Source of the DNA: Eledone cirrhosa | Taxonomy: Eukaryota | NCBI GenBank assembly: GCA_964016885.1 | Contig: OZ024740.1 | Location: 95,604,001 to 95,668,000 of the forward strand | Direction of reading: 5' to 3' | Length of the DNA stretch: 64,000 nucleotides | In this document: in pieces, positions 5,871 to 64,000 of the stretch | Position numbering within the stretch: the stretch's first letter is position 1 | Layout: each line of letters begins with the position of its first letter | The notes under the pieces: model-generated | The model's database searches: none | What the model saw: the letters and a program-made list of their open reading frames with translations, nothing else | Told to the model about the DNA's origin: nothing | Program-made: the position numbers and the translations under genes

Positions 5871-6688
5871 AATCACTGTTCAATAAAAGCATTTAGGAAA
5901 ATGAAACAAATCCATCTGACATAAATTATTTATATTATATTTTGAAGGCAAATATTTGCCTCCAAAAACCAACACAATGGGTAAATATACATTTCGCTCG
6001 TAAAATTTGCTATATGTGAAGTAAGCTTTGGCGTGTAATAGTATGTTCATAAAATATAGTGTCTTCCGTAAAATATCAAATGTGGTGATATATAACTGGT
6101 TTGCAAATTGAGATATGAATAAATAATTTTTGAAACATAGACACTGTAATTTCTTTCTGTATATTTGGAACTTTCACTTTTCTTTTTTATTAGTTTTTGT
6201 TTGGTTTTGTGTAGTCAATATTTACTAAATATAAACAATTATTTAAAGTTTCATATTCTTATCCAGACAAGAAGAAAGATGAAGAGAAGTATTCGATAAT
6301 TTGTCAGTTAATAAGAGGGTGCCAATATTTATGTTTCCATACATCATTTCTTCTTTTGGAAAGTTGATTGAATTTAAAATGAATAACTAGATAAGACAAC
6401 ATAAATACACACATATTTAATATATAATTTATTTACAGTAGAGGTTTGCTTAGTCAATATATTGATTTCACGATTTACTTTGATGCATGTATTATTTATT
6501 TTGCCCACATTGATATTTTAATTTAATTCAACTTAGTGTAGCATGAAGCCTGTTATATATATTTCCAAGGTATGGTCATTTATTTATCTGAATCTATTAG
6601 ATGAAATAGATGAGAAAATTAGTAGAACCAATTTTGTTAATTATCATTTCTTCATGTGTTACACATGCAATGAATAACATAAAGCTGA

Positions 6689-11679: not shown

Positions 11680-12149
<470 letters not shown>

Positions 12150-12861: not shown

Positions 12862-14495
12862 TAAAATACGTAGTTAAGAAAGCCACAACAATGCAGAGAG
12901 AAATCTCGAGGTAGGAAGTGAATGATAGATAGGAGAAACAGGAGAAAGTGAAAATTGAGAGAGACAAAGATGAAAACAAAACAAAGGTAGAAGGGTTACC
13001 GTAGTGGAGATTTAATCCTAATATTTCGGGCTCACGCCCATCAACGGGGGAAAGTTCCAAAAGGGGGGGAACAGGCCAAGCGGAGAAAGTTGTGTTGTCG
13101 TTAAGACAGGAATGCCGTTATGGGGAGAAAATTATTTAAAATTTAAACGAGGGAAAGAATGCGCGTGCGCGTGATAGGCTGTGGCAAAAGCTACTGACCA
13201 AATGGGTTAAATCAAGAGGGTGCGCTAGCGTGTGAAAGCCGTAAAATATGTGTGTGTAAATATATATGTGTGTGTAACTGTGTGTGTATAAGTGTAAGTG
13301 TGTATAAGTGTGAGTGTGTGTGTGTGTGAAAGATAGTGGGCTGTAGAAGCTGGAAATCAAAGGGTGTGAAAGGTGGTAGGTTGTAAAACATGTGTGCGTG
13401 TATAAATATAGATGTGTGTGTGTAAGCGTATGGGTATACATGTGTGTGTAACTGTGTGTGTATATGTGTGAGTGCGTGTGTGTGTGAAAGATAGTGGGCT
13501 GTAGAAGCTGGAAATCAAAGGGTGTGAAAGGTGGTAGGTTGTAAAAACATGTGTGCGTGTATAAATATAGATGTGTGTGTGTATGCGTATGGGTATGCAT
13601 ATACGTGCGTGTGTGTGAAGATAGCAGGCCATAGGCTGTGAATGGTCACTATGGTTAAGTTAGCCATGTCAGCTCATTTCTCTCAGCCCGGTTGTTAAGT
13701 GGGGGTCTGAGGTTCTTAATAACAAGTGCTTCCTTTATCATTAAGGATCCGATGCTGCGTTCAGTCGCTAGGACTGTGACCAAGGGTCTACCCTGTGGGT
13801 TTCCGCATTTAAGGATGTGTTTACAGATAGAAGATGCGTTGGTGTTGATATGTTCCTTGATACGAACATGTAGGGGTCGAATGGTGCTACCTATGTAAAA
13901 CTTGTTACATTTATCGCATTGAATCTTATATACGACATAGGTACGTAGGCAATCTGCCCCCCGTATCGGGCAGTTGCTGAGGGAACACGTCCCATCTGAC
14001 TCGTCGGGTTAGTTGGAGAGGCATATTCGCAGCGAAGGTCCTGTGTGGGCCAAATGTATGTCAAGCCCCTCCGTCTGTATCGCCCTGCGGATGGCGTTCG
14101 TGGTATATTCACTCAGGTGGGGGATTTTAAAGTAGCACCTGCTTTTATTTAAGTTTCTAGTAGGTGTCTGTCTATTGGGTCTGGGGTCTCTAATACCGTT
14201 AATCAGTCGCTTGGGATAACCATTAGATCTGAGTAGATTACGGAATTGCGTGGTATGGGGGAGACCACCCATCGGATCGCTGCATCTGTTAGTGATCCGT
14301 GTCAGTTCATTTAGGACATAGCCTCTCTTAGCGTTGTTGGGGAGGGCTGAGTTGTAATGCACAAATAAGTCCTTGCACGCTGCTTTGCGGTAGAAGGTGG
14401 TGTTTATGTCTTCTTCTTCCGAGATGTTGATACGGAAGTCGAGGAGGGCGAGTGACCCGTCTTCTCCTGGGTGTTCGATGGTGAAATCGACGTGA
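12862..14495 (-). mobile_element. Inverted partial copy of PLE family A (RT thumb, GIY-YIG, 3' UTR)
   Basis: Reverse complement of 15139-16773 with scattered differences. ORF 14009-14362 (HYNSALPNNAKRGYV...LRSNGYPKRLI...IPHLSE) is a PLE thumb and linker. Confidence 0.95.
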
Positions 14496-14499
14496 CTCG

Positions 14500-15977
14500 A
14501 AACAGCAAACTACCCACATTCTACCCACCTTCTACCACCTGGTTAAAACACATAAACAAGGACCCGATTTGAAAATCAGGCCCATTGTCTCTAGCGTGGA
14601 GGGCCCACTCTACAAAATATCGTGGCTGCTCTCCACACTACTGAAACCCATTCTACACACACTACCAGCCCAAGTCTGCAGCTCAAAGGAGGTCTTGGAG
14701 CGACTACACCATCTGGCGCCCAACACCAGAAAGGACAACGGTTATGCCTTCAGTCTTGATGTGGTCGCCCTTTATACCTCCGTACCAGCATCCCCGGCTG
14801 TCGACCTGTTGACCGAACGAGTCCGAGCATCTAACTTACACTGCTTCGGACTCACACACACGGACATACACCAACTCCTCTCCTTCGTTGTGGATAATGC
14901 AATCTTCAATTTCCTCGGCCACACGTACAAACAAATCTCCGGGCTACCTATGGGCTCTAGTCTGTCCGGCATACTTGCGATCTCGTACATGGACCACCTG
15001 GAACGCAAGGCACTTAATCAATACCTGCCAACCCAACGCCGTCGCCTTCTACTCCAGATACGTTGATGACATCCTGATACTTACTTCTTCCCGCGAGATG
15101 GCGAATGAAATTCACCAAATCTTCAACGATACTGACCATCACGTCGATTTCACCATCGAACACCCAGGAGAAGCCGGGTCACTCGCCCTCCTCGACTTCC
15201 GTATCAACATCTCGGATGAAGGAGACATAAACACCACCTTCTACCGCAAAGCAGCGTGCAAGGACTTATTTGTGCATTACAACTCAGCCCTCCCCAACAA
15301 CACAAAGAGAGGCTATGTCCTAAATGAACTGACATGGATCGATAACAGATGCAGCCACCCGATGGGTGGTCTCACCCATACCACGCAATTCCGTAATCTA
15401 CTCAGATCTAATGGTTATCCCAAGCGACTGATTAACGGTATTAGAGACCCCAGACCCAATAGACAGACACCCACTAGAAACTTAAATAAAAGCAGGTGCT
15501 TCTTTAAAATCCCCACCTGAGTGATTATACCACGAACGCCATCCGCAGGGCCATACGGACGGAGGGACTTGACATACATTTGGCCCACACAGGACCTTCG
15601 CTGCGAAGATGCCTCTCCAACAACCCGACGAGTCAGATGGGACGTGTTCCCTCAGCAACTGCCCGATACGGGGGGCAGATTGCCTACGCACCTATGTCGT
15701 ATATAAGATTCAATGCGATAAATGTAACAAGTTTTACATGGGTAGCACCATCCGACCCCTACATGTTCGTATCAAGGAACATATCAACACCAACGCATCT
15801 TCCTTCCGTAAACACATCCTTAAATGCGGAAACCCACAGGGTAGACCCTTGGTCACAGTCCTAGCGACTGAACGCAGCATCGGATCCTTAAGGATAAAGG
15901 AAGCACTTGTTATTAAGAACCACAGACCCCCACTTAACAACCGGGCTGAGAGAAATGAGCTGACATGGCTAACTTAA
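14500..15977 (+). pseudogene. Frameshifted PLE reverse transcriptase / GIY-YIG endonuclease polyprotein
   Basis: Motifs PTFYHLVKTHK, IRPIVS, FSLDVVALYTSVP, QISGLPMGSSLS, SRYVDD, LLDF, NGYP, Cys linker CSLSNCPIRGADC, then VVYKIQCDKCNKFYMGST.R.L..RIKEH...IKEALVI....PPLN. Frameshifts near 15020, 15520 and 15620. Confidence 0.93.
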
Positions 15978-16009
15978 CCATAGTGACCATTCACAGCCTA
16001 CGGCCTGCT

Positions 16010-16390
16010 ATCTTCACACACACGCACGTATATGCATACCCATACGCACACACACACACATCTATATTTATACACGCACACATGTTTTTACAACCTACCA
16101 CCTTTCACACCCTTTGATTTCCAGCTTCTACAGCCCACTATCTTTCACACACACACGCACTCACACATATACACACATAGTTACACACACATGTATACCC
16201 ATACGCTTACACACACATATCTATATTTATACACGCACACATGTTTTACAACCTACCACCTTTCACACCCTTTGATTTCTAGCTTCTACAGCCCACTATC
16301 TTTCACACACACACACACTCACACTTATACACACTTACACTTATACACACACAGTTACACACACATATATATTTACACACACATATTTTA
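16010..16390 (+). repeat. Tandem duplication of about 158 bp with CA-rich microsatellites in the PLE 3' UTR
   Basis: ACCTACCACCTTTCACACCCTTTGATTT at about 16093 and 16251; mirrored at 13250-13620. Confidence 0.85.
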
Positions 16391-16811
16391 CGGCTTTCAC
16401 AAGCTAGCGCACCCTCTTGATTTAACCCATTTGGTCAGTAGCTTTTGCTACAGCCTATCACGCGCACGCGCATTCTTTCCCTCGCTTAAATTTTAAATAA
16501 TGTTCTCCCCATAACGGCATTCCTGTCTTAACGACATCACAACTTTCTCCGCTTGGCCTGTCCCCCCCCCCCTTTTGGAACTTTCCCCCGTTGATGGGCG
16601 TGAGCCCGAAATATTAGGATTAAATCTCCACTACGGTAACCCTTCTACCTTTGTTTTGTTTTCATCTTTGTCTCTCTCAATTTTCACTTTCTCCTGTTTC
16701 TCCTATCTATCATTCACTTCCTACCTCGAGATTTCCCTCTGCATTGTTGTGGATTTCTTAACTACGTATTTTACACATTTCACAATGCTTCAAGCAAACT
16801 TTAACACCCTC

Positions 16812-16876: not shown

Positions 16877-16928
<52 letters not shown>

Positions 16929-16986
16929 CAACATGACCCTCCCAAAGTATAACAATATATTTATATATATATATTTATAAATATAT
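16812..16986. repeat. Imperfect (TA)n tract containing the second copy of the 32-bp motif (16925-16956)
   Basis: Direct reading. Confidence 0.95.
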
Positions 16987-17187
16987 AAACAATTAAGTTA
17001 AAGTGTACATCTACATATGTATACGGAAGTACTAGTATGCATATAAATACACACATGTATACATATGTACATGTACTGAGTTTTTCACTAGACACTTTAC
17101 AGTGAGTGTCCAGCTAGTCTGTATGTAACCAAACAGACGAACCGGGTTTTAGAGTAATACGAGTTTTCAAGGAAACACACTTCCTCG

Positions 17188-17282
17188 ATTCTCCAGAGAG
17201 CCAGACAGGAATATTGGACTAGTTTCGATGTTATTACATCTCATCAGCAATATAAACCCATCTTCCGGCTTCTCTAGAGAAT
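17188..17282 (-). ncRNA. Type I hammerhead ribozyme, first copy (core 17211-17253; predicted cleavage GUC/C between 17217 and 17216)
   Basis: Minus strand: helix I AUAUUG/CAAUAU, CUGAUGA, helix II GAUGU-AAUA-ACAUC, GAAA, helix III A-CUAG-U, C17. Helix I extends through AGAUGGG/CCUGUCU and AUUCUCUAGAGAAGCC/GGCUCUCUGGAGAAU. Confidence 0.93.
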
Positions 17283-17400
17283 TGTAAAAGCACATATCGT
17301 TATATGCTTTTTCTATGAAAATTAGTAGTGGGCAGACTAAGTTGCATAGAACGTGAGTCATTGTACGCACCGGTTCAGCGGAAACGACAAAAACAAATAA

Positions 17401-17425
17401 CGAAACGAAATTAAATTTCGTTTCG
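17401..17425. repeat. 25-bp palindrome in the monomer (first copy shown)
   Basis: CGAAACGAAATT-A-AATTTCGTTTCG. Confidence 0.95.
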
Positions 17426-18280
17426 CTTCTAACTCACTTTTGTATGACTGACGCTTAAACAATTAAGTTACAGTGTACATCTACATATGTATACGGAAGT
17501 ACTAGTATGCATATAAATACACACATGTATACATATGTACATGTACTGAGTTTTTCACTAGACACTTTACAGTGAGTGTTCAGCTAGTCTGTATGTAACC
17601 AAACAGACGAACCGGGTTTTAGAGTCATACGAGTTTTCAGGGAAACAGACTTCCTCTATTCTCCAGAGAGCCAGACAGGAATATTGGACTAGTTTCGATG
17701 TTATTACATCTCATCAGCAATATATACCCATCTTCCGGCTTCTCTAGAGAATTGTAAAAGCACATATCGTTATATGCTTTTTTCTATGAAAATTAGTAGT
17801 GGGCAGACTAGTTTGCTTAGAACTTGAGTCATTGTACGCACCGGTTCAGCGGAAACGATAAAAACAAATAACGAAACGAAATTAAATTTCATTTCGCTTC
17901 TAACTCACTTTTGTATGACTGACGCTTAAACAATTAAGTTAAAGTGTACATCTACATATGTATACGGAAGTACTAGTATGCATATAAATACACACATGTA
18001 TACATATGTACATGTACTGAGTTTTTCACTAGACACTTTACAGTGAGTGTCCAGCTAGTCTGTATGTAACCAAACAGAAGAACCGGGTTTTAGAGTCATA
18101 CGAGTTTTCAAGGAAACACACTTCCTCTATTCTCCAGAGAGCCAGACAGGAATATTGGACTAGTTTCGATGTTATTACATCTCATCAGCAATATAAACCC
18201 ATCTTCCGGCTTCTCTAGAGAATTGTAAAAGCAAATATCGTTATATGCTTTTTCTATGAAAATTAGTAGTGGGCAGACTA

Positions 18281-18301
18281 ATTTGCATAGAACGTGAGTC
18301 A
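18281..18301 (-). promoter_or_regulatory. Octamer (ATGCAAAT) and AP-1-like (TGACTCA) motifs present in most monomers (one copy shown)
   Basis: ATTTGCAT at 18281-18288 and TGAGTCA at 18295-18301, about 90 nt upstream of the hammerhead on the minus strand. Function is unverified. Confidence 0.4.
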
Positions 18302-21300
18302 TTGTACGCACCAGTTCAGCGGAAACGATAAAAACAAATAACGAAACGAAATTAAATTTCGTTTCGCTTCTAACTCACTTTTGTATGACTGACGCTTAAA
18401 CAATTAAGTTAAAGTGTACATCTACATATGTATACGGAAGTACTAGTATGCATATAAATACACACATGTATACAAATGTACATGTACTGAGTTTTTCACT
18501 AGACACTTTACAGTGAGTGTCCAGCTAGTCTGTATGTAACCAAACAGACGAACCGGGTTTTAGAGTCATACGAGTTTTCAAGGAAACAGACTTCCTCTAT
18601 TCTCCAGAGAGCCAGACAGGAATATTGGACTAGTTTCGATGTTATTACATCTCATCAGCAATATAAACCCATCTTCCGGCTTCTCTAGAGAATTGTAAAA
18701 GCACATATCGTTATATGCTTTTTCTATGAAAATTAGTAGTGGGCAGACTAATTTGCATAGAACGTGAGTCATTGTACGCACCGGTTCAGCGTAAACGATA
18801 AAAACAAATAACGAAACGAAATTAAATTTCGTTTCGCTTCTAACTCACTTTTGTATGACTGACGCTTAAACAATTAAGTTACAGTGTACATCTACATATG
18901 TATACGGAAGTACTAGTATGCATATAAATACACACATGTATACATATGTACATGTACTGAGTTTTTCACTAGACACTTTACAGTGAGTGTTCAGCTAGTC
19001 TGTATGTAACCAAACAGACGAACCGGGTTTTAGAGTCATACGAGTTTTCAAGGAAACACACTTCCTCGATTCTCCAGAGAGCCAGACAGGAATATTGGAC
19101 TAGTTTCGATGTTATTACATCTCATCAGCAATATATACCCATCTTCCGGCTTCTCTAGAGAATTGTAAAAGCAAATATCGTTATATGCTTTTTCTATGAA
19201 AATTAGTAGTGGGCAGACTAATTTGCATAGAACGTGAGTCATTGTACGCACCAGTTCAGCGGAAACGATAAAAACAAATAACGAAACGAAATTAAATTTC
19301 GTTTCGCTTCTAACTCACTTTTGTATGACTGACGCTTAAACAATTAAGTTAAAGTGTACATCTATATATGTATACGGAAGTACTAGTATAAATATAAATA
19401 CACACATGTATACATATGTACATGTACTGAGTTTTTCACTAGACACTTTACAGTGAGTGTCCAGCTAGTCTGTATGTAACCAAACAGACGAACCGGGTTT
19501 TAGAGTCATACGAGTTTTCAAGGAAACACACTTCCTCTATTTCCAGAGAGCCAGACAGGAATATTGGACTAGTTTCGATGTTATTACATCTCATCAGCAA
19601 TATTTAGCCATCTTCCGGCTTCTCTAGAGAATTGTAAAAGCACATATCGTTATATGCTTTTTCTATGAAAATTAGTAGAGGGCAGACTAATTTGCTTAGA
19701 ACGTGAGTCATTGTACGCACCGGTTCAGCGGAAACGATAAAAACAAATAACGAAACGAAATTAGATTTCGTTTCGCTTCTAACTCACTTTTGTATGACTG
19801 ACGCTTAAACAATTAAGTTAAAGTGTACATCTACATATGTATACGGAAGTACTAGTATGCATATAAATACACACATGTATACATATGTACATGTACTGAG
19901 TTTTTCACTAGACACTTTACAGTGAGTGTCCAGCTAATCTGTATGTAACCAAACAGACGAACCGGGTTTTAGAGTCATACGAGTTTTCAAGGAAACAGAC
20001 TTCCTCTATTCTCCAGAGAGCCAGACAGGAATATTGGACTAGTTTCGATGTTATTACATCTCATCCGCAATATATACCCATCTTCCGGCTTCTCTAGAGA
20101 ATTGTAAAAGCACATATCGTTATATGCTTTTTCTATGAAAATTAGTAGTGGGCAGACTAATTTGCATAGAACGTGAGTCATTGTACGCACCGGTTCAGCG
20201 GAAACAATAAAAGCAAATAACGAAACGAAATTAAATTTCGTTTCGCTTCTAACTCACTTTTGTATGACTGACGCTTAAACAATTAAGTTACAGTGTACAT
20301 CTACATATGTATACGGAAGTACTAGTATGCATATAAATACACACATGTATACATATGTACATGTACTGAGTTTTTCACTAGACACTTTACAGTGAGTGTT
20401 CAGCTAGTCTGTATGTAACCAAACAGACGAACCGGGTTTTAGAGTCATACGAGTTTTCAAGGAAACAGACTTCCTCTATTCTCCAGAGAGCCAGACAGGA
20501 ATATTGGACTAGTTTCGATGTTATTACATCTCATCAGCAATATATACCCATCTTCCGGCTTCTCTAGAGAATTGTAAAAGCACATATCGTTATATGCTTT
20601 TTTCTATGAAAATTAGTAGTGGGCAGACTAGTTTGCTTAGAACTTGAGTCATTGTACGCACCGGTTCAGCGGAAACGATAAAAACAAATAACGAAACGAA
20701 ATTAAATTTCGTTTCGCTTCTAACTCACTTTTGTATGACTGACGCTTAAACAATTAAGTTACAGTGTACATCTACATATGTATACGGAAGTACTAGTATG
20801 CATATAAATACACACATGTATACATATGTACATGTACTGAGTTTTTCACTAGACACTTTAGAGTGAGTGTTCAGCTAGTCTGTATGTAACCAAACAGACG
20901 AACCGGGTTTTAGAGTCATACGAGTTTTCAAGGAAACAGACTTCCTCTATTCTCCAGAGAGCCAGACAGGAATATTGGACTAGTTTCGATGTTATTACAT
21001 CTCATCAGCAATATATACCCATCTTCCGGCTTCTCTAGAGAATTGTAAAAGCACATATCGTTATATGCTTTTTTCTATGAAAATTAGTAGTGGGCAGACT
21101 AGTTTGCTTAGAACTTGAGTCATTGTACGCACCGGTTCAGCGGAAACGATAAAAACAAATAACGAAACGAAATTAAATTTCGTTTCGCTTCTAACTCACT
21201 TTAGTATGACTGACGCTTAAACAATTAAGTTACAGTGTACATCTACATATGTATACGGAACTACTAGTATGCATATAAATACACACATGTATACATATGT

Positions 21301-24300
21301 ACATGTACTGAGTTTTTCACTAGACACTTTACAGTGAGTGTCCAGCTAGTCTGTATGTAACCAAACAGAAGAACCGGGTTTTAGAGTCATACGAGTTTTC
21401 AAGGAAACACACTTCCTCTATTCTCCAGAGAGCCAGACAGGAATATTGGACTAGTTTCGATGTTATTACATCTCATCAGCAATATAAACCCATCTTCCGG
21501 CTTCTCTAGAGAATTGTAAAAGCAAATATCGTTATATGCTTTTTCTATGAAAATTAGTAGTGGGCAGACTAATTTGCATAGAACGTGAGTCATTGTACGC
21601 ACCAGTTCAGCGGAAACGATAAAAACAAATAACGAAACGAAATTAAATTTCGTTTCGCTTCTAACTCACTTTTGTATGACTGACGCTTAAACAATTAAGT
21701 TAAAGTGTACATCTACATATGTATACGGAAGTACTAGTATGCATATAAATACACACATGTATACAAATGTACATGTACTGAGTTTTTCACTAGACACTTT
21801 ACAGTGAGTGTCCAGCTAGTCTGTATGTAACCAAACAGACGAACCGGGTTTTAGAGTCATACGAGTTTTCAAGGAAACAGACTTCCTCTATTCTCCAGAG
21901 AGCCAGACAGGAATATTGGACTAGTTTCGATGTTATTACATCTCATCAGCAATATAAACCCATCTTCCGGCTTCTCTAGAGAATTGTAAAAGCACATATC
22001 GTTATATGCTTTTTCTATGAAAATTAGTAGTGGGCAGACTAATTTGCATAGAACGTGAGTCATTGTACGCACCGGTTCAGCGTAAACGATAAAAACAAAT
22101 AACGAAACGAAATTAAATTTCGTTTCGCTTCTAACTCACTTTTGTATGACTGACGCTTAAACAATTAAGTTACAGTGTACATCTACATATGTATACGGAA
22201 GTACTAGTATGCATATAAATACACACATGTATACATATGTACATGTACTGAGTTTTTCACTAGACACTTTACAGTGAGTGTTCAGCTAGTCTGTATGTAA
22301 CCAAACAGACGAACCGGGTTTTAGAGTCATACGAGTTTTCAAGGAAACACACTTCCTCGATTCTCCAGAGAGCCAGACAGGAATATTGGACTAGTTTCGA
22401 TGTTATTACATCTCATCAGCAATATATACCCATCTTCCGGCTTCTCTAGAGAATTGTAAAAGCAAATATCGTTATATGCTTTTTCTATGAAAATTAGTAG
22501 TGGGCAGACTAATTTGCATAGAACGTGAGTCATTGTACGCACCAGTTCAGCGGAAACGATAAAAACAAATAACGAAACGAAATTAAATTTCGTTTCGCTT
22601 CTAACTCACTTTTGTATGACTGACGCTTAAACAATTAAGTTAAAGTGTACATCTATATATGTATACGGAAGTACTAGTATAAATATAAATACACACATGT
22701 ATACATATGTACATGTACTGAGTTTTTCACTAGACACTTTACAGTGAGTGTCCAGCTAGTCTGTATGTAACCAAACAGACGAACCGGGTTTTAGAGTCAT
22801 ACGAGTTTTCAAGGAAACACACTTCCTCTATTTCCAGAGAGCCAGACAGGAATATTGGACTAGTTTCGATGTTATTACATCTCATCAGCAATATTTAGCC
22901 ATCTTCCGGCTTCTCTAGAGAATTGTAAAAGCACATATCGTTATATGCTTTTTCTATGAAAATTAGTAGAGGGCAGACTAATTTGCTTAGAACGTGAGTC
23001 ATTGTACGCACCGGTTCAGCGGAAACGATAAAAACAAATAACGAAACGAAATTAGATTTCGTTTCGCTTCTAACTCACTTTTGTATGACTGACGCTTAAA
23101 CAATTAAGTTAAAGTGTACATCTACATATGTATACGGAAGTACTAGTATGCATATAAATACACACATGTATACATATGTACATGTACTGAGTTTTTCACT
23201 AGACACTTTACAGTGAGTGTCCAGCTAATCTGTATGTAACCAAACAGACGAACCGGGTTTTAGAGTCATACGAGTTTTCAAGGAAACAGACTTCCTCTAT
23301 TCTCCAGAGAGCCAGACAGGAATATTGGACTAGTTTCGATGTTATTACATCTCATCCGCAATATATACCCATCTTCCGGCTTCTCTAGAGAATTGTAAAA
23401 GCACATATCGTTATATGCTTTTTCTATGAAAATTAGTAGTGGGCAGACTAATTTGCATAGAACGTGAGTCATTGTACGCACCGGTTCAGCGGAAACAATA
23501 AAAGCAAATAACGAAACGAAATTAAATTTCGTTTCGCTTCTAACTCACTTTTGTATGACTGACGCTTAAACAATTAAGTTACAGTGTACATCTACATATG
23601 TATACGGAAGTACTAGTATGCATATAAATACACACATGTATACATATGTACATGTACTGAGTTTTTCACTAGACACTTTACAGTGAGTGTTCAGCTAGTC
23701 TGTATGTAACCAAACAGACGAACCGGGTTTTAGAGTCATACGAGTTTTCAAGGAAACAGACTTCCTCTATTCTCCAGAGAGCCAGACAGGAATATTGGAC
23801 TAGTTTCGATGTTATTACATCTCATCAGCAATATATACCCATCTTCCGGCTTCTCTAGAGAATTGTAAAAGCACATATCGTTATATGCTTTTTTCTATGA
23901 AAATTAGTAGTGGGCAGACTAGTTTGCTTAGAACTTGAGTCATTGTACGCACCGGTTCAGCGGAAACGATAAAAACAAATAACGAAACGAAATTAAATTT
24001 CGTTTCGCTTCTAACTCACTTTTGTATGACTGACGCTTAAACAATTAAGTTACAGTGTACATCTACATATGTATACGGAAGTACTAGTATGCATATAAAT
24101 ACACACATGTATACATATGTACATGTACTGAGTTTTTCACTAGACACTTTAGAGTGAGTGTTCAGCTAGTCTGTATGTAACCAAACAGACGAACCGGGTT
24201 TTAGAGTCATACGAGTTTTCAAGGAAACAGACTTCCTCTATTCTCCAGAGAGCCAGACAGGAATATTGGACTAGTTTCGATGTTATTACATCTCATCAGC

Positions 24301-27300
24301 AATATATACCCATCTTCCGGCTTCTCTAGAGAATTGTAAAAGCACATATCGTTATATGCTTTTTTCTATGAAAATTAGTAGTGGGCAGACTAGTTTGCTT
24401 AGAACTTGAGTCATTGTACGCACCGGTTCAGCGGAAACGATAAAAACAAATAACGAAACGAAATTAAATTTCGTTTCGCTTCTAACTCACTTTAGTATGA
24501 CTGACGCTTAAACAATTAAGTTACAGTGTACATCTACATATGTATACGGAACTACTAGTATGCATATAAATACACACATGTATACATATGTACATGTACT
24601 GAGTTTTTCACTAGACACTTTACAGTGAGTGTTCAGCTAGTCTGTATGTAACCAAACAGACGAACAGGGTTTTAGAGTCATACGAGTTTTCAAGGAAACA
24701 GACTTCCTCTATTCTCCAGAGAGCCAGACAGGAATATTGGACTAGTTTCGATGTTATTACATCTCATCAGCAATATATACCCATCTTCCGGCTTCTCTAG
24801 AGAATTGTAAAAGCACATATCGTTATATGCTTTTTTCTATGAAAATTAGTAGTGGGCAGACTAGTTTGCTTAGAACTTGAGTCATTGTACGCACCGGTTC
24901 AGCGGAAACGATAAAAACAAATAACGAAACGAAATTAAATTTCGTTTCGCTTCTAACTCACTTTTGTATGACTGACGCTTAAACAATTAAGTTACAGTGT
25001 ACATCTACATATGTATACGGAAGTACTAGTATGCATATAAATACACACATGTATACATATGTACATGTACTAAGTTTTTCACTAGACACTTTACAGTGAG
25101 TGTTCAGCTAGTCTGTATGTAACCAAACAGACGAACCGGGTTTTAGAGTCATGCGAGTTTTCAAGGAAACAGACTTCCTCTATTCTCCAGAGAGCCAGAC
25201 AGGAATATTGGACTAGTTTCGATGTTATTACATCTCATCAGCAATATATACCCATCTTCCGGCTTCTCTAGAGAATTGTAAAAGCACATATCGTTATATG
25301 CTTTTTTCTATGAAAATTAGTAGTGGGCAGACTAGTTTGCTTAGAACTTGAGTCATTGTACGCACCGGTTCAGCGGAAACGATAAAAACAAATAACGAAA
25401 CGAAATTAAATTTCGTTTCGCTTCTAACTCACTTTTGTATGACTGACGCTTAAACAATTAAGTTAAAGTGTACATCTACATATGTATACGGAAGTACTAG
25501 TATGCATATAAATACACACATGTATACATATGTACATGTACTGAGTTTTTCACTAGACACTTTACAGTGAGTGTCCAGCTAGTCTGTATGTAACCAAACA
25601 GACGAACCGGGTTTTAGAGTCATACGAGTTTTCAAGGAAACAGACTTCCTCTATTCTTCAGAGAGCCAGACAGGAATATTGGACTAGTTTCGATGTTATT
25701 ACATCTCATCAGCAATATAAACCCATCTTCCGGCTTCTCTAGAGAATTGTAAAAGCAAATATCGTTATATGCTTTTTCTATGAAAATTAGTAGTGGGCAG
25801 ACTAATTTGCATAGAACGTGAGTCATTGTACTCACCAGTTCAGCGGAAACGATAAAAACAAATAACGAAACGAAATTAAATTTCGTTTCGCTTCTAACTC
25901 ACTTTTGTATGACTGACGCTTAAACAATTAAGTTAAAGTGTACATCTATATATGTATACGGAAGTACTAGTATGCATATAAATACACACATGTAGACATA
26001 TGTACATGTACTGAGTTTTTCACTAGACACTTTACAGTGAGTGTCCAGCTAGTCTGTATGTAACCAAACAGACGAACCGGGTTTTAGAGTCATACGAGTT
26101 TTCAAGGAAACAGACTTCCTCTATTCTCCAGAGAGCCAGACAGGAATATTGGACTAGTTTCGATGTTATTACATCTCATCAGCAATATAAACCCATCTTC
26201 CGGCTTCTCTAGAGAATTGTAAAAGCACATATCGTTATATGCTTTTTCTATGAAAATTAGTAGTGGGCAGACTAATTTGCATAGAACGTGAGTCATTGTA
26301 CGCACCGGTTCAGCGGAAACGATAAAAACAAATAACGAAACGAAATTAAATTTCGTTTCGCTTCTAACTCACTTTTGTATGACTGACGCTTAAACAATTA
26401 AGTTAAAGTGTACATCTACATATGTATACGGAAGTACTAGTATGCATATAAATACACACATGTATACATATGTACATGTACTGAGTTTTTCACTAGACAC
26501 TTTACAGTGAGTGTCCAGCTAGTCTGTATGTAACCAAACAGACGAACCGGGTTTTAGAGTCATACGAGTTTTCAAGGAAACAGACTTCCTCTATTCTCCA
26601 GAGAGCCAGACAGGAATATTGGACTAGTTTCGATGTTATTACATCTCATCAGCAATATAAACCCATCTTCCGGCTTCTCTAGAGAATTGTAAAAGCAAAT
26701 ATCGTTATATGCTTTTTCTATGAAAATTAGTAGTGGGCAGACTAATTTGCATAGAACGTGAGTCATTGTACGCACCAGTTCAGCGGAAACGATAAAAACA
26801 AATAACGAAACGAAATTAAATTTCGTTTCGCTTCTAACTCACTTTTGTATGACTGACGCTTAAACAATTAAGTTAAAGTGTACATCTATATATGTATACG
26901 GAAGTACTAGTATAAATATAAACACACACATGTATACATATGTACATGTACTGAGTTTTTCACTAGACACTTTACAGTGAGTGTCCAGCTAGTCTGTATG
27001 TAACCAAACAGACGAACCGGGTTTTAGAGTCATACGAGTTTTCAAGGAAACAGACTTCCTCTATGCTCCAGAGAGCCAGACAGGAATATTGGACTAGTTT
27101 CGATGATATTACATCTCATCAGCAATATTTAGCCATCTTCCGGCTTCTCTAGAGAATTGTAAAAGCACATATCGTTATATGCTTTTTCTATGAAAATTAG
27201 TAGAGGGCAGACTAATTTGCTTAGAACGTGAGTCATTGTACGCACCGGTTCAGCGGAAACGATAAAAACAAATAACGAAACGAAATTAGATTTCGTTTCG

Positions 27301-30300
27301 CTTCTAACTCACTTTTGTATGACTGACGCTTAAACAATTAAGTTAAAGTGTACATCTACATATGTATACGGAAGTACTAGTATGCATATAAATACACACA
27401 TGTATACATATGTACATGTACTGAGTTTTTCACTAGACACTTTACAGTGAGTGTTCAGCTAGTCTGTATGTAACCAAACAGACGAACCGGGTTTTAGAGT
27501 CATACGAGTTTTCAAGGAAACAGACTTCCTCTATTCTCCAGAGAGCCAGACAGGAATATTGGACTAGTTTCGATGTTATTACATCTCATCAGCAATATAA
27601 ACCCATCTTCCCGCTTCTCTAGAGAATTGTAAAAGCAAATATCGTTATATGCTTTTTCTATGAAAATTAGTAGTGGGCAGACTAATTTGCATAGAACGTG
27701 AGTCATTGTACGCACCAGTTCAGCGGAAACGATAAAAACAAATAACGAAACGAAATTAAATTTCGTTTCGCTTCTAACTCACTTTTGTATGACTGACGCT
27801 TAAACAATTAAGTTAAAGTGTACATCTACATATGTATACGGAAGTACTAGTATGCATATAAATACACACATGTATACATATGTACATGTACTGAGTTTTT
27901 CACTAGACACTTTACAGTGAGTGTCCAGCTAGTCTGTATGTAACCAAACAGACGAACCGGGTTTTAGAGTGATACGAGTTTTCAAGGAAACAGACTTCCT
28001 CTATTCTCCAGAGAGCCAGACGGGAATATTGGACTAGTTTCGATGTTATTACATCTCATCAGCAATATAAACCCATCTTCCGGCTTCTCTAGAGAATTGT
28101 AAAAGCACATATCGTTATATGCTTTTTCTATAAAAATTAGTAGTGGGCAGACTAGTTTGCTTAGAACTTGAGTCATTGTACGCACCGGTTCAGCGGAAAC
28201 GATAAAAACAAATAACGAAACGAAATTAAATTTCGTTTCGCTTCTAACTCACTTTTGTATGACTGACGCTTAAACAATTAAGTTACAGTGTACATCTACA
28301 TATGTATACGGAAGTACTAGTATGCATATAAATACACACATGTATACATATGTACATGTACTGAGTTTTTCACTAGACACTTTACAGTGAGTGTTCAGCT
28401 AGTCTGTATGTAACCAAACAGACGAACCGGGTTTTAGAGTCATACGAGTTTTCAAGGAAACAGACTTCCTCTATTCTCCAGAGAGCCAGACAGGAATATT
28501 GGACTAGTTTCGATGTTATTACATCTCATCAGCATTATATACCCATCTTCCGGCTTCTCTAGAGAATTGTAAAAGCACATATCGTTATATGCTTTTTTCT
28601 ATGAAAATTAGTAGTGGGCAGACTAGTTTGCTTAGAACTTGAGTCATTGTACGCACCGGTTCAGCGGAAACGATAAAAACAAATAACGAAACGAAATTAA
28701 ATTTCGTTTCGCTTCTAACTCACTTTAGTATGACTGACGCTTAAACAATTAAGTTACAGTGTACATCTACATATGTATACGGAACTACTAGTATGCATAT
28801 AAATACACACATGTATACATATGTACATGTACTGAGTTTTTCACTAGACACTTTACAGTGAGTGTTCAGCTAGTCTGTATGTAACCAAACAGACGAACAG
28901 GGTTTTAGAGTCATACGAGTTTTCAAGGAAACAGACTTCCTCTATTCTCCAGAGAGCCAGACAGGAATATTGGACTAGTTTCGATGTTATTACATCTCAT
29001 CAGCAATATATACCCATCTTCCGGCTTCTCTAGAGAATTGTAAAAGCACATATCGTTATATGCTTTTTTCTATGAAAATTAGTAGTGGGCAGACTAGTTT
29101 GCTTAGAACTTGAGTCATTGTACGCACCGGTTCAGCGGAAACGATAAAAACAAATAACGAAACGAAATTAAATTTCGTTTCGCTTCTAACTCACTTTTGT
29201 ATGACTGACGCTTAAACAATTAAGTTACAGTGTACATCTACATATGTATACGGAAGTACTAGTATGCATATAAATACACACATGTATACATATGTACATG
29301 TACTGAGTTTTTCACTAGACACTTTACAGTGAGTGTTCAGCTAGTCTGTATGTAACCAAACAGACGAACCGGGTTTTAGAGTCATGCGAGTTTTCAAGGA
29401 AACAGACTTCCTCTATTCTCCAGAGAGCCAGACAGGAATATTGGACTAGTTTCGATGTTATTACATCTCATCAGCAATATATACCCATCTTCCGGCTTCT
29501 CTAGAGAATTGTAAAAGCACATATCGTTATATGCTTTTTTCTATGAAAATTAGTAGTGGGCAGACTAGTTTGCTTAGAACTTGAGTCATTGTACGCACCG
29601 GTTCAGCGGAAACGATAAAAACAAATAACGAAACGAAATTAAATTTCGTTTCGCTTCTAACTCACTTTTGTATGACTGACGCTTAAACAATTAAGTTAAA
29701 GTGTACATCTACATATGTATACGGAAGTACTAGTATGCATATAAATACACACATGTATACATATGTACATGTACTGAGTTTTTCACTAGACACTTTACAG
29801 TGAGTGTCCAGCTAGTCTGTATGTAACCAAACAGACGAACCGGGTTTTAGAGTCATACGAGTTTTCAAGGAAACAGACTTCCTCTATTCTCCAGAGAGCC
29901 AGACAGGAATATTGGACTAGTTTCGATGTTATTACATCTCATCAGCAATATAAACCCATCTTCCGGCTTCTCTAGAGAATTGTAAAAGCAAATATCGTTA
30001 TATGCTTTTTCTATGAAAATTAGTAGTGGGCAGACTAATTTGCATAGAACGTGAGTCATTGTACGCACCAGTTCAGCGGAAACGATAAAAACAAATAACG
30101 AAACGAAATTAAATTTCGTTTCGCTTCTAACTCACTTTTGTATGACTGACGCTTAAACAATTAAGTTAAAGTGTACATCTATATATGTATACGGAAGTAC
30201 TAGTATAAATATAAACACACACATGTATACATATGTACATGTACTGAGTTTTTCACTAGACACTTTACAGTGAGTGTCCAGCTAGTCTGTATGTAACCAA

Positions 30301-33300
30301 ACAGACGAACCGGGTTTTAGAGTCATACGAGTTTTCAAGGAAACAGACTTCCTCTATTCTCCAGAGAGCCAGACAGGAATATTGGACTAGTTTCGATGAT
30401 ATTACATCTCATCAGCAATATTTAGCCATCTTCCGGCTTCTCTAGAGAATTGTAAAAGCACATATCGTTATATGCTTTTTCTATGAAAATTAGTAGAGGG
30501 CAGACTAATTTGCTTAGAACGTGAGTCATTGTACGCACCGGTTCAGCGGAAACGATAAAAACAAATAACGAAACGAAATTAGATTTCGTTTCGCTTCTAA
30601 CTCACTTTTGTATGACTGACGCTTAAACAATTAAGTTAAAGTGTACATCTACATATGTATACGGAAGTACTAGTATGCATATAAATACACACATGTATAC
30701 ATATGTACATGTACTGAGTTTTTCACTAGACACTTTACAGTGAGTGTTCAGCTAGTCTGTATGTAACCAAACAGACGAACCGGGTTTTAGAGTCATACGA
30801 GTTTTCAAGGAAACAGACTTCCTCTATTCTCCAGAGAGCCAGACAGGAATATTGGACTAGTTTCGATGTTATTACATCTCATCAGCAATATAAACCCATC
30901 TTCCCGCTTCTCTAGAGAATTGTAAAAGCAAATATCGTTATATGCTTTTTCTATGAAAATTAGTAGTGGGCAGACTAATTTGCATAGAACGTGAGTCATT
31001 GTACGCACCAGTTCAGCGGAAACGATAAAAACAAATAACGAAACGAAATTAAATTTCGTTTCGCTTCTAACTCACTTTTGTATGACTGACGCTTAAACAA
31101 TTAAGTTAAAGTGTACATCTACATATGTATACGGAAGTACTAGTATGCATATAAATACACACATGTATACATATGTACATGTACTGAGTTTTTCACTAGA
31201 CACTTTACAGTGAGTGTCCAGCTAGTCTGTATGTAACCAAACAGACGAACCGGGTTTTAGAGTGATACGAGTTTTCAAGGAAACAGACTTCCTCTATTCT
31301 CCAGAGAGCCAGACGGGAATATTGGACTAGTTTCGATGTTATTACATCTCATCAGCAATATAAACCCATCTTCCGGCTTCTCTAGAGAATTGTAAAAGCA
31401 CATATCGTTATATGCTTTTTCTATAAAAATTAGTAGTGGGCAGACTAGTTTGCTTAGAACTTGAGTCATTGTACGCACCGGTTCAGCGGAAACGATAAAA
31501 ACAAATAACGAAACGAAATTAAATTTCGTTTCGCTTCTAACTCACTTTTGTATGACTGACGCTTAAACAATTAAGTTACAGTGTACATCTACATATGTAT
31601 ACGGAAGTACTAGTATGCATATAAATACACACATGTATACATATGTACATGTACTGAGTTTTTCACTAGACACTTTACAGTGAGTGTTCAGCTAGTCTGT
31701 ATGTAACCAAACAGACGAACCGGGTTTTAGAGTCATACGAGTTTTCAAGGAAACAGACTTCCTCTATTCTCCAGAGAGCCAGACAGGAATATTGGACTAG
31801 TTTCGATGTTATTACATCTCATCAGCAATATATACCCATCTTCCGGCTTCTCTAGAGAATTGTAAAAGCACATATCGTTATATGCTTTTTTCTATGAAAA
31901 TTAGTAGTGGGCAGACTAGTTTGCTTAGAACTTGAGTCATTGTACGCACCGGTTCAGCGGAAACGATAAAAACAAATAACGAAACGAAATTAAATTTCGT
32001 TTCGCTTCTAACTCACTTTTGTATGACTGACGCTTAAACAATTAAGTTAAAGTGTACATCTACATATGTATACGGAAGTACTAGTATGCATATAAAAACA
32101 CACATGTATACATATGTACATGTACTGAGTTTTTCACTAGACACTTTACAGTGAGTGTCCAGCTAGTCTGTATGTAACCAAACAGAAGAACCGGGTTTTA
32201 GAGTCATACGAGTTTTCAAGGAAACACACTTCCTCTATTCTCCAGAGAGCCAGACAGGAATATTGGACTAGTTTCGATGTTATTACATCTCATCAGCAAT
32301 ATAAACCCATCTTCCGGCTTCTCTAGAGAATTGTAAAAGCAAATATCGTTATATGCTTTTTCTATGAAAATTAGTAGTGGGCAGACTAATTTGCATAGAA
32401 CGTGAGTCATTGTACGCACCAGTTCAGCGGAAACGATAAAAACAAATAACGAAACGAAATTAAATTTCGTTTCGCTTCTAACTCACTTTTGTATGACTGA
32501 CGCTTAAACAATTAAGTTAAAGTGTACATCTACATATGTATACGGAAGTACTAGTATGCATATAAATACACACATGTATACATATGTACATGTACTGAGT
32601 TTTTCACTAGACACTTTACAGTGAGTGTCCAGCTAGTCTGTATGTAACCAAACAGACGAACCGGGTTTTAGAGTCATACGAGTTTTCAAGGAAACAGACT
32701 TCCTCTATTCTCCAGAGAGCCAGACAGGAATATTGGACTAGTTTCGATGTTATTACATCTCATCAGCAATATAAACCCATCTTCCGGCTTCTCTAGAGAA
32801 TTGTAAAAGCACATATCGTTATATGCTTTTTCTATGAAAATTAGTAGTGGGCAGACTAATTTGCATAGAACGTGAGTCATTGTACGCACCGGTTCAGCGG
32901 AAACGATAAAAACAAATAACGAAACGAAATTAAATTTCGTTTCGCTTCTAACTCACTTTTGTATGACTGACGCTTAAACAATTAAGTTAAAGTGTACATC
33001 TACATATGTATACGGAAGTACTAGTATGCATATAAATACACACATGTATACATATGTACATGTACTGAGTTTTTCACTAGACACTTTACAGTGAGTGTCC
33101 AGCTAGTCTGTATGTAACCAAACAGACGAACCGGGTTTTAGAGTCATACGAGTTTTCAAGGAAACAGACTTCCTCTATTCTCCAGAGAGCCAGACAGGAA
33201 TATTGGACTAGTTTCGATGTTATTACATCTCATCAGCAATATAAACCCATCTTCCGGCTTCTCTAGAGAATTGTAAAAGCAAATATCGTTATATGCTTTT

Positions 33301-36300
33301 TCTATGAAAATTAGTAGTGGGCAGACTAATTTGCATAGAACGTGAGTCATTGTACGCACCAGTTCAGCGGAAACGATAAAAACAAATAACGAAACGAAAT
33401 TAAATTTCGTTTCGCTTCTAACTCACTTTTGTATGACTGACGCTTAAACAATTAAGTTAAAGTGTACATCTATATATGTATACGGAAGTACTAGTATAAA
33501 TATAAATACACACATGTATACATATGTACATGTACTGAGTTTTTCACTAGACACTTTACAGTGAGTGTCCAGCTAGTCTGTATGTAACCAAACAGACGAA
33601 CCGGGTTTTAGAGTCATACGAGTTTTCAAGGAAACAGACTTCCTCTATTCTCCAGAGAGCCAGACAGGAATATTGGACTAGTTTCGATGATATTACATCT
33701 CATCAGCAATATTTAGCCATCTTCCGGCTTCTCTAGAGAATTGTAAAAGCACATATCGTTATATGCTTTTTCTATGAAAATTAGTAGAGGGCAGACTAAT
33801 TTGCTTAGAACGTGAGTCATTGTACGCACCGGTTCAGCGGAAACGATAAAAACAAATAACGAAACGAAATTAGATTTCGTTTCGCTTCTAACTCACTTTT
33901 GTATGACTGACGCTTAAACAATTAAGTTAAAGTGTACATCTACATATGTATACGGAAGTACTAGTATGCATATAAATACACACATGTATACATATGTACA
34001 TGTACTGAGTTTTTCACTAGACACTTTACAGTGAGTGTCCAGCTAATCTGTATGTAACCAAACAGACGAACCGGGTTTTAGAGTCATACGAGTTTTCAAG
34101 GAAACAGACTTCCTCTATTCTCCAGAGAGCCAGACAGGAATATTGGACTAGTTTCGATGTTATTACATCTCATCCGCAATATATACCCATCTTCCGGCTT
34201 CTCTAGAGAATTGTAAAAGCACATATCGTTATATGCTTTTTCTATGAAAATTAGTAGTGGGCAGACTAATTTGCATAGAACGTGAGTCATTGTACGCACC
34301 GGTTCAGCGGAAACAATAAAAGCAAATAACGAAACGAAATTAAATTTCGTTTCGCTTCTAACTCACTTTTGTATGACTGACGCTTAAACAATTAAGTTAC
34401 AGTGTACATCTACATATGTATACGGAAGTACTAGTATGCATATAAATACACACATGTATACATATGTACATGTACTGAGTTTTTCACTAGACACTTTACA
34501 GTGAGTGTTCAGCTAGTCTGTATGTAACCAAACAGACGAACCGGGTTTTAGAGTCATACGAGTTTTCAAGGAAACAGACTTTCTCTATTCTCCAGAGAGC
34601 CAGACAGGAATATTGGACTAGTTTCGATGTTATTACATCTCATCAGCAATATAAACCCATCTTCCCGCTTCTCTAGAGAATTGTAAAAGCAAATATCGTT
34701 ATATGCTTTTTCTATGAAAATTAGTAGTGGGCAGACTAATTTGCATAGAACGTGAGTCATTGTACGCACCAGTTCAGCGGAAACGATAAAAACAAATAAC
34801 GAAACGAAATTAAATTTCGTTTCGCTTCTAACTCACTTTTGTATGACTGACGCTTAAACAATTAAGTTAAAGTGTACATCTACATATGTATACGGAAGTA
34901 CTAGTATGCATATAAATACACACATGTATACATATGTACATGTACTGAGTTTTTCACTAGACACTTTTCAGTGAGTGTCCAGCTAGTCTGTATGTAACCA
35001 AACAGACGAACCGGGTTTTAGAGTGATACGAGTTTTCAAGGAAACAGACTTCCTCTATTCTCCAGAGAGCCAGACGGGAATATTGGACTAGTTTCGATGT
35101 TATTACATCTCATCAGCAATATAAACCCATCTTCCGGCTTCTCTAGAGAATTGTAAAAGCACATATCGTTATATGCTTTTTCTATGAAAATTAGTAGTGG
35201 GCAGACTAATTTGCATAGAACGTGAGTCATTGTACGCACCGGTTCAGCGGAAACGATAAAAACAAATAACGAAACGAAATTAAATTTCGTTTCGCTTCTA
35301 ACTCACTTTTGTATGACTGACGCTTAAACAATTAAGTTAAAGTGTACATCTACATATGTATACGGAAGTACTAGTATGCATATAAATACACACATGTATA
35401 CATATGTACATGTACTGAGTTTTTCACTAGACACTTTACAGTGAGTGTCCAGCTAGTCTGTATGTAACCAAACAGACGAACCGGGTTTTAGAGTCATACG
35501 AGTTTTCAAGGAAACACACTTCCTCTATTCTCTAGAGAGCCAGACAGGAATATTGGACTAGTTTCGATGTTATTACATCTCATCAGCAATATAAACCCAT
35601 CTTCCGGCTTCTCTAGAGAATTGTAATAGCACATATCGTTATATGCGTTTTCTATGAAAATTAGTAGTGAAAACATTAATTTGCATAGAACGTGAGTCAT
35701 TGTACGCACCGGTTTAGCGGAAACGATAAAAACAAGTAACGAAACGAAATTAAATTTCGTTTCGCTTATAACTCACTTTTGTATGGCTGACGCTTAAACA
35801 ATTAAGTTAAAGTGTACATCTACATATGTATACGGAAGTACTAGTATGCATATAAATACACACATGTATACATATGTACAAGTACTGAGTTTTTCACTAG
35901 ACACTTTACAGTGAGTGTCCAGCTAGTCTGTATGTAACCAAACAGACGAACCGGCTTTTAGAGTCATACGAGTTTTCAAGGAAACAGACTTCCTCTATTC
36001 TCCAGAGAGCCAGACAGGAATATTGGACTTGTTTCGATGTTATTACATATCATCAACAATATATACCCATCTTCCGGCTTCTCTAGAGAATTGTAAAAGC
36101 ACATATCGTTATATGCTTTTTTCTATGAAAATTAGTAGTGGGCAGACTAATTTGCTTAGAACGTGAGTCATTGTACGCACCGGTTCAGCGGAAACGATAA
36201 AAACAAATAACGAAACGAAATTAAATTTCGTTTCGCTTCTAACTCACTTTTGTATGACTGACGCTTAAACAATTAAGTTAAAGTGTACATCTACATATGT

Positions 36301-63300: not shown

Positions 63301-63732
63301 CAATATAACCCATCTTCCGGCTTCTCTAGAGAATTGTAAAAGCACATATCGTTATATGCTTTTTCTATGAAAATTAGTAGTGGGCAGACTAATTTGCATA
63401 GAACGTGAGTCATTGTACGCACCGGTTCAGCGGAAACGATAAAAACAAATAACGAAACGAAATTAAATTTCGTTTCTTTTCTAACTCACTTTTGTATGAC
63501 TGACGCTTAAACAATTAAGTTAAAGTGTACCTCTACATATGTATACGGAAGTACTAGTAGGCATATAAATACACACATGTATACATATGTACATGTACTG
63601 AGTTTTTCACTAGACACTTTACAGTGAGTGTCCAGCTAGTCTGTATGTAACCAAACAGACGAACCGGGTTTTAGAGTCATACGAGTTTTCAAGGAAAAAC
63701 ACTTCCTCTATTCTCCAGAGAGCCAGACAGGA

Positions 63733-63775
63733 ATATTGGACTAGTTTCGATGTTATTACATCTCATCAGCAATAT
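63733..63775 (-). ncRNA. Type I hammerhead ribozyme core, last copy in the window
   Basis: ATATTGGACTAGTTTCGATGTTATTACATCTCATCAGCAATAT, identical to the first copy. Confidence 0.93.
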
Positions 63776-64000
63776 AACCCATCTTCCGGCTTCTCTAGAG
63801 AATTGTAAAAGCACATATCGTTATATGCTTTTTCTATGAAAATTAGTAGTGGGCAGACTAATTTGCATAGAACGTGAGTCATTGTACGCACCGGTTCAGC
63901 GGAAACGATAAAAACAAATAACGAAACGAAATTAAATTTCGTTTCGCTTCTAACTCACTTTTGTATGACTGATGCTTAAACAATTAAGTTAAAGTGTACA

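Follow-up and report, generated by a model that had tools for sequence, protein, structure and literature searches.

A 470-bp hammerhead retrozyme with a palindromic helix III and head-to-head, two-ended insertions in the genome of Eledone cirrhosa

Introduction

In most metazoan type I hammerhead ribozymes, helix III has 1–2 bp and its loop is palindromic, and these ribozymes function as dimers (PMC4209133); the link between palindrome and dimer is stated outright in PMC4209133 and PMC7229834. The idea itself is not new and is more than 35 years old, having been held since 1988 (Forster 1988; Epstein 1991; Lunse 2017; as cited, e.g., in PMC6765202). The axolotl hammerhead Amex1 has the same anatomy as the ribozyme described here, together with full tertiary contacts; its monomer was 6% cleaved in one hour, and its dimer was cleaved much better (PMC7229834). 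Monomers from the newt are cleaved too when helix I carries a looped extension similar to that of the present unit (PMC6155905). One of nine Xenopus dimer constructs was cleaved (bioRxiv 10.64898/2026.07.22.740005), a result that counts against the dimer reading.

Arrays of 180–300 units and an origin from Penelope-like elements (PLEs) have already been reported (bioRxiv 10.64898/2026.07.22.740005), the case for PLEs in the accessible text of that study being co-occurrence and pLTR similarity only. According to the accessible text of a 2020 review (PMC7761336), animal retrozymes carry no conserved motif that reveals the mobilizing retrotransposon. PLE insertions consist of a copy with an inverted 5'-truncated copy, have a tail at one end and lie in (TA)n targets (PMC8557442). 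A PLE protein predicted to be dimeric uses two internal reverse transcription (RT) start sites, and transposition of the PLE PAc in vitro is independent of its hammerhead and uses unprocessed RNA (PMC11167929).

Here we describe a family of hammerhead-bearing repeats in the octopus Eledone cirrhosa, starting from a stretch of 64,000 nucleotides (GCA_964016885.1, contig OZ024740.1, positions 95,604,001 to 95,668,000), hereafter called the window.

Results

The minus strand of the window carries a tandem array of 470-bp units (Table 1), which are 97% alike and have a GC content of 36%. The array extends 18.2 kb past the window and is followed there by an inverted arm of ~2 units, which has a "long" end at unit position 296. 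The array units radiate in an almost star-like manner from a single founder, and block duplications were seen at lags 5, 7, 9, and 28. No ORF of ≥90 aa overlapped the first unit, and no LTR was visible at the insertion ends. The predicted fold of the circular monomer was −151.9 kcal/mol, compared with −98.5 ± 5.9 kcal/mol for 40 shuffled sequences (z −9). Like retrozymes, the units are short, have a GC content below 50%, stand head to tail in runs ranging from dimers to long multimers, and are dispersed; they constitute a new non-LTR retrozyme family. In most units an octamer-like motif was observed ~120 bp upstream of the ribozyme (at ~17340–17360 in the window), and it was intact (ATTTGCAT) at ~18281. 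Newt satellite 2 uses a promoter of the snRNA type, of which we take this upstream octamer-like ATTTGCAT to be reminiscent. Elsewhere in the window, positions 4416–5872 of the minus strand contain GC-rich frameshifted ORF fragments, presumably resembling a decayed non-LTR retrotransposon; one fragment that was searched had no Pfam match.

In the first unit, the elements of the hammerhead follow one another on the minus strand as helix I (AUAUUG), CUGAUGA, helix II (GAUG-UAAUAA-CAUC), GAA, A-CUAG-U, C17, and the returning strand of helix I (CAAUAU). Helix I comprises 6 bp, an internal loop, and a second 6-bp stem; helix II has 4 bp and loop 2 has 6 nt. A sequence-only reading of this DNA had placed a self-complementary hexamer between GAA and the cleavage-site C at 17214–17226, and A-CUAG-U was indeed found there. 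Its further label of a minimal hammerhead of the PLE type was wrong, because helix I is extended and looped and helix II is a 4-bp stem with a 6-nt loop. The hammerhead matched Rfam Hammerhead_HH9 (RF02275) in E-value mode (E = 3.9e-6; 30.4 bits, gathering score of 52 not reached), and a scan at gathering thresholds gave no match for it to HH9 (RF02275) or Hammerhead_1 (RF00163). All 18 RF00163 hits in the genome came from a hammerhead family different from that of the 470-bp unit. The 18 named hammerhead pairs were all 100% paired in 11 subfamily sequences (9 distinct). One pair in helix II was swapped between A-U and U-A, which is compensatory, and three pairs varied via G-U; the changes of helix I among lineages were of the G-U kind. 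The HH9 E-value and the fully kept pairs indicate that the hammerhead is not a chance occurrence, and it is predicted to be of the canonical extended retrozyme form, with a 6+6-bp looped helix I and a 6-nt loop 2. U1.7, which we take to be the base that makes the contact between loops 1 and 2, was lost in 16 of the 100 window units.

Table 1. Features of the retrozyme array and the neighbouring PLE (positions in the window)
Feature	Position	Strand	Basis or remark
Tandem array of 470-bp retrozyme units	16986..64000	-	100 in window, ~139 total
"Short" 3' end of main arm (unit position 231), into TA-rich target	16955..16986	-	
Extended type I hammerhead, first unit	17204..17262	-	Rfam HH9 match, pair counts
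Distal helix I	17257-17262 with 17204-17209	-	
Helix I	17248-17253 with 17211-17216	-	
Core CUGAUGA	17241-17247	-	
Helix II	17227-17240	-	
GAA	17224-17226	-	
Palindromic helix III A-CUAG-U (A15.1 to U16.1), first unit	17218..17223	-	sequence
C17	17217	-	
Predicted cut	between 17217 and 17216	-	established hammerhead numbering
~70-nt "tail", unit positions 232-298	17389..17455	-	mapped ends; 12-bp hairpin ~17399-17425 in circular fold
Eight CAAG loop variants	starts 36025, 36966, 38846, 40256, 41666, 51058, 53406, 54816 (36025..54827)	-	
Single CUUG loop variant	63269..63280	-	
Neighbouring PLE, 5'-truncated, frameshifted, RT and C-terminal GIY-YIG	14485..16811	+	Pfam RVT_1 E 1.7e-4, GIY-YIG E 7.2e-5
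Inverted tail-less arm of neighbouring PLE insertion	12864..14500	-	

To compare monomeric and dimeric cleavage, folding energies were calculated with a nearest-neighbour model. Helix III of a monomer, a single A-U pair closing CUAG, cost +5.5 kcal/mol, which bears out the earlier view that it would be unstable, and the 6-bp ACUAGU duplex yielded −4.8 kcal/mol. For a natural two-unit transcript, the double hammerhead was favoured by 13.0 kcal/mol over two single ones (−182.3 vs −169.3 kcal/mol). In this model, which ignores tertiary contacts, the double fold lay only 1.2 kcal/mol below single folds with an open helix III, and the unconstrained fold, 3.3 kcal/mol lower than the double hammerhead, was a misfold in which the hexamer is paired to the core. 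CAAG abolished the hexamer duplex in the folding model (from −4.8 to −0.2 or +0.9 kcal/mol); with one CAAG partner, the duplex was at −0.2 kcal/mol and the double fold was 1.7–7.3 kcal/mol above the open form. For a CAAG/CUUG pair a duplex of −4.4 kcal/mol was predicted. These models suggest that the palindromic helix III likely makes neighbouring ribozymes cut best as a double hammerhead. Dimeric cleavage as predicted by the sequence-only reading is thus favoured by the folding energetics and the analogy with Amex1, but the idea was already known, and newt monomers with a looped helix I cleave too. A single extended hammerhead that cuts adequately in the same retrozyme with the same mobilization, its palindrome being an accelerator or a relic, is hard to reconcile with the +5.5 kcal/mol cost of the monomeric loop in the folding model, with the 6% cleavage of the Amex1 monomer of the same anatomy (PMC7229834), and with the recurrence of different palindromes in other hammerhead families of the genome. 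We consider it unlikely, even though a contact between loops 1 and 2 is possible (the unit has U1.7 and a looped extension of helix I, both of them conserved among lineages), newt monomers with such an extension cleave (PMC6155905), the PAc hammerhead is protein-assisted (PMC11167929), and the loop taken by itself shows no significant conservation.

All 100 full window units were aligned for a census of the helix III loop. CUAG was present in 91 units, CAAG in eight, and CUUG in one, and the core plus palindrome was intact in 83. The eight CAAG sites listed by the sequence-only reading are real, all lying within 5 nt of the positions given, and the CUUG copy at 63269 had been missed. Since CAAG copies 36025 and 40256 also carry core lesions, and 51058 and 53406 a helix I mismatch, the clean test variants are only 36966, 38846, 41666, and 54816. 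Genome-wide, 9,367 matches to the hammerhead pattern were found in 3.0 Gb, and 9,249 of them kept CUAG. This copy-level retention (98.0% and 98.7% by two counts) resembles recent neutral decay and was not counted as selection. Because a palindromic 4-mer arises by chance with a probability of 1 in 16 in one family, the evidence for the palindrome lies in its retention and in other families. By eye, in partial lists of the multi-copy hammerhead families of the genome, the self-complementary loops A-UGCA-U, A-UAUG-U, and ACA-U-UGU were found, as were non-palindromic loops in at least three families (GAAC, CAGC/UAGC, and CAGU). The ACA-U-UGU helix III, self-complementary with a central U-U, belongs to a second hammerhead family (L085–L102) that exceeds the RF00163 cut-off, and one locus of that family (L100/L101) has two head-to-head copies. 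A-UGCA-U is the loop of an older dispersed family (L059–L065), often found beside short inverted copies; no PLE ORF was linked near its motif.

Most dispersed copies of the 470-bp unit consist of two arms that meet with their 5' ends and are inserted in (TA)n. Counted from the cut site, their 3' ends lie at unit positions 226–232 (short) or 296–300 (long); the long ends were recounted by hand, with AT microhomology shifting the readings to 299–300. Three sets of loci were examined. In set A, 35 loci picked by ribozyme, 22 of the 26 head-to-head pairs were long+short and the other four had an irregular end, and 10 of the 35 loci were single-armed within the fetched stretch. Set B comprised five loci of an 88% subfamily, in which three of four mapped pairs were long+short and one was short+short (L055). 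Set C comprised 40 loci picked by the long end, so that short+short pairs were unable to appear; the second arm was short in 25/25 mapped pairs, two were open, and 13/40 loci were single-armed within the fetched stretch. L030, a duplicate of L029, was left out, and L075/L083 were set aside as part of a larger inverted duplication. With the window array included, 51 of 56 mapped pairs were long+short and none was long+long. (TA)n was abutted by 25/25 short ends in set C and by 25/30 classed ends in set A, and since the targets are (TA)n, no target-site duplication is readable here. The long end occurred 1,203 times on the forward strand, giving ~2,400 dispersed long ends in all; the short-end count of 196 (forward) is not comparable with this number because its pattern fits only one subfamily. 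At one locus (L037:1844-4583), retrozyme insertions from two different subfamilies lie nested next to each other, and each of them is broken at about unit position 286–288.

The 5' ends were spread evenly round the unit: of 138 ends, 5 lay near the cut site, against an expectation of 2.9. Among them there was no enrichment at the cleavage site that past cleavage might have left behind, suggesting that RT would read through the ribozyme junction. Units within young arms were identical in 11/11, 6/6, and 9/10 cases. When the opposite arm of a locus was compared with other loci, it was the closest of all in 14/23 cases, within the top 10% in 20/23, and nearer than the median in 23/23. Judged by this similarity, both arms of one locus derive from the same variant. 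Alternatively, the units could be identical because they were copied from a linear multimer that was itself homogeneous, because the DNA was recently duplicated, or because the assembly was polished. The window array was considered as a source of the dispersed copies and rejected: none of 41 other loci nested in a supported array subclade, and six attached basally.

We further examined selection on the ribozyme. A first test (0/31 vs 67/426, p 0.006) was partly circular, as its loci had been picked by ribozyme pattern, and was therefore repeated on 40 loci chosen by the long-end (tail) motif, 170 nt from the ribozyme; eight loci covering ≤300 positions were dropped, leaving 32. Across the 16 sites of the core, GAA, and ACUAGU there were 0 parsimony steps, compared with 0.36 per site in the rest of the unit, and equally clean 16-nt windows made up 0.5% of all. 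The loop alone was not significant (P ~0.31 for CUAG, 0.18 for the hexamer), and the retention of C15.2/G16.2 could have reasons other than the palindrome. C17 varies to U, and the cleavage triplet was GUU rather than GUC in 26 of the 32 loci. GUU is a slower cleavage triplet than GUC, and its majority suggests tolerance of, or selection for, slower cutting. Nothing on the GUU triplet was found in the accessible text of PMC1636495.

Inside the window array, the core was as variable as the rest of the unit (7/16 sites vs 149/426 elsewhere), suggesting that within ~139 units it decays at the background rate, free of constraint. At most one intact core per arm was present in 19/35 loci of set A and 23/40 of set C. 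A core that is invariant among lineages and unconstrained in the array indicates that the ribozyme matters to the moving lineages and not to the long array. The proposal that the tandem arrangement may be functionally required, linking array architecture to catalysis, is therefore unsupported for the long array and holds for pairs at most: monomers with a looped helix I cleave (newt), the array core decays, and catalysis would need no more than a pair. Any retrozyme needs two tandem cuts to free a unit, irrespective of helix III.

These data bear on the origin of the copies. An ordinary satellite amplified at the DNA level only, with a long array maintained for catalysis or an incidental hammerhead, could account for the block duplications at lags 5, 7, 9, and 28, but it is already contradicted by the ~2,400 dispersed long ends with fixed positions in (TA)n and by the unconstrained core of the array, and we give it hardly any credence. 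The RT template may also have been an uncut linear multimeric transcript, the ribozyme being near-idle in transposition, with another role (e.g. 5' processing) or simply carried along. This seems improbable in view of the core invariant among lineages, the identity of units in young arms as opposed to the heterogeneity of old arrays, and the sampled dispersed loci, none of which nests in a supported subclade of the window array. Related retrozymes, moreover, accumulate as circles (PMC7229834), but PAc used unprocessed RNA (PMC11167929). That the 5' ends do not cluster at the cut site is compatible with uncut templates and with circles alike. The GUU site of 26/32 tail-picked loci, a slower triplet, also speaks for a linear template.

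To search for the mobilizing element, we examined the PLE next to the array. It is a young head-to-head insertion of high copy number (12864–16811; copies 97–98% identical, 1,750 candidates) that carries a 38-nt tail of its own and runs out into (TA)n, and its family followed the long+short rule in 4/4 mapped two-armed loci. As the partner of the retrozyme it was rejected, for it has no similarity to the unit and its 3' end lacks a canonical hammerhead; because no sequence is shared, it is a separate insertion in the same microsatellite and not a proven partner. A conserved hammerhead-like stem followed by GAAA, without the canonical G8-A9, was observed in its 3' region at ~16592–16620. A partner PLE was also sought via the long-end motif, and 40/40 tail-picked loci contained the retrozyme only, with no PLE coding sequence. 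Neither in the neighbouring PLE family nor at the 40 tail-picked loci did we find a PLE that has sequence in common with the unit. Few changes among lineages occurred in the tail region (bins 221–300), and the tail would be the region of RT initiation. Read from the genome, the insertion pattern is likely the "tail" signature of PLEs, and would lend genomic support to rolling-circle copying driven by PLEs. A ~31-nt motif was also seen to recur inside (TA)n tracts, at 11937–11968 and 16926–16957 of the window and beside loci L048 and L135; it is probably what remains of the end of a different element that also targets microsatellites.

Discussion

The genome directly supports what is described here of the anatomy and copy numbers of this family, the positions of its ends, the identity of its arms, and its pattern of conservation. 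The family is probably a non-coding 470-bp non-LTR retrozyme that is cut as a double hammerhead via its palindrome and copied into (TA)n by the RT-endonuclease of a PLE. The following cycle, from transcription through dimer-dependent cleavage and circles to the enzyme of a PLE, is inferred. Read-through transcription would yield multimers, in which two ACUAGU hexamers would pair and helix I strands swap, so that both sites are cut. The freed unit would be ligated into a circle, which its lone, weak ribozyme would rarely recut. A PLE protein would then cut (TA)n and use the two DNA ends as primers on the circle, at a pair of fixed sites separated by ~70 nt, and RT would continue round the circle through the ribozyme junction. 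Joining of the two cDNAs at their 5' ends would give head-to-head arms of identical units. The window array may be one such insertion, which later grew to ~139 units by DNA-level duplication and now decays unconstrained.

A more specific version can be put forward only tentatively, namely that each two-armed insertion arises from one circular RNA by the action of a dimeric PLE protein, with one protomer per site, and that the helix III palindrome is a safety catch which spares the monomer circle while multimers are processed. If this is true, twin priming by PLEs on a circle is recorded in the genomic copies of the family, which then provides the first insertion-signature evidence naming PLEs as the mobilizer of animal retrozymes. 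Thousands of young insertions give fixed RT starts, a near-strict rule of one long and one short end, and arms of the same template. The insertion signature defines a candidate cis element of ~70 nt and bears on how PLEs make tandem-plus-inverted insertions, and the long satellite array of the window would have been born from one retroposed insertion. A head-to-head long+short anatomy was not found described for retrozymes in the accessible text of PMC7761336 and bioRxiv 10.64898/2026.07.22.740005 or in literature searches that covered the main text of mostly open-access papers.

The closest satellite precedent is pDo500 of Dolichopoda (PMC2837043), of ~500 bp and with a type I hammerhead for which single and double forms are debated. 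Its ribozyme is more conserved than the remainder, as in the present family, and in its double hammerhead stems I and II are swapped in trans and helix III forms within one strand. Unlike for the present family, no mobility signature is described in the accessible text on pDo500 (PMC2837043). The minimal hammerheads of PLEs (PMC4209133; Lunse et al. 2017) have in common with our unit the short palindromic helix III and a proposed dimeric cleavage. They have a short helix I, an ill-defined loop 1, and a long helix II, and lie in pLTRs flanking the RT-EN ORF (PMC4209133), whereas the present unit has a 6+6-bp helix I and a 4-bp helix II and is not accompanied by PLE coding sequence (40/40 loci).

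The animal non-LTR retrozymes (Cervera and de la Pena 2020, PMC7229834; axolotl HHR_Amex1, newt satellite 2) are likewise tandem, low-GC, non-coding units, each with one canonical type I hammerhead whose one-pair helix III bears a palindromic tetraloop. They also share with our family a strongly self-paired unit and the presence of PLEs in the same genome (PMC7229834). The unit is 470 bp here, compared with 150–450 bp in PMC7229834 and 51–972 bp in bioRxiv 10.64898/2026.07.22.740005, and its head-to-head anatomy with two ends is not described in the accessible text of PMC7229834. In PLE insertions (Naiad/Chlamys, PMC8557442; Poseidon PAc, PMC11167929), as in those of the unit, a 5'-truncated copy stands in inverted orientation, only one end bears a tail, the targets are (TA)n or AT-rich, and there are two internal start sites for RT. 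The tail is ~67–72 nt in the present unit, which codes for no protein, vs 30–40 nt in PLEs. PLEs also have non-autonomous multi-copy derivatives arranged head to tail (PMC8557442, PMC11167929).
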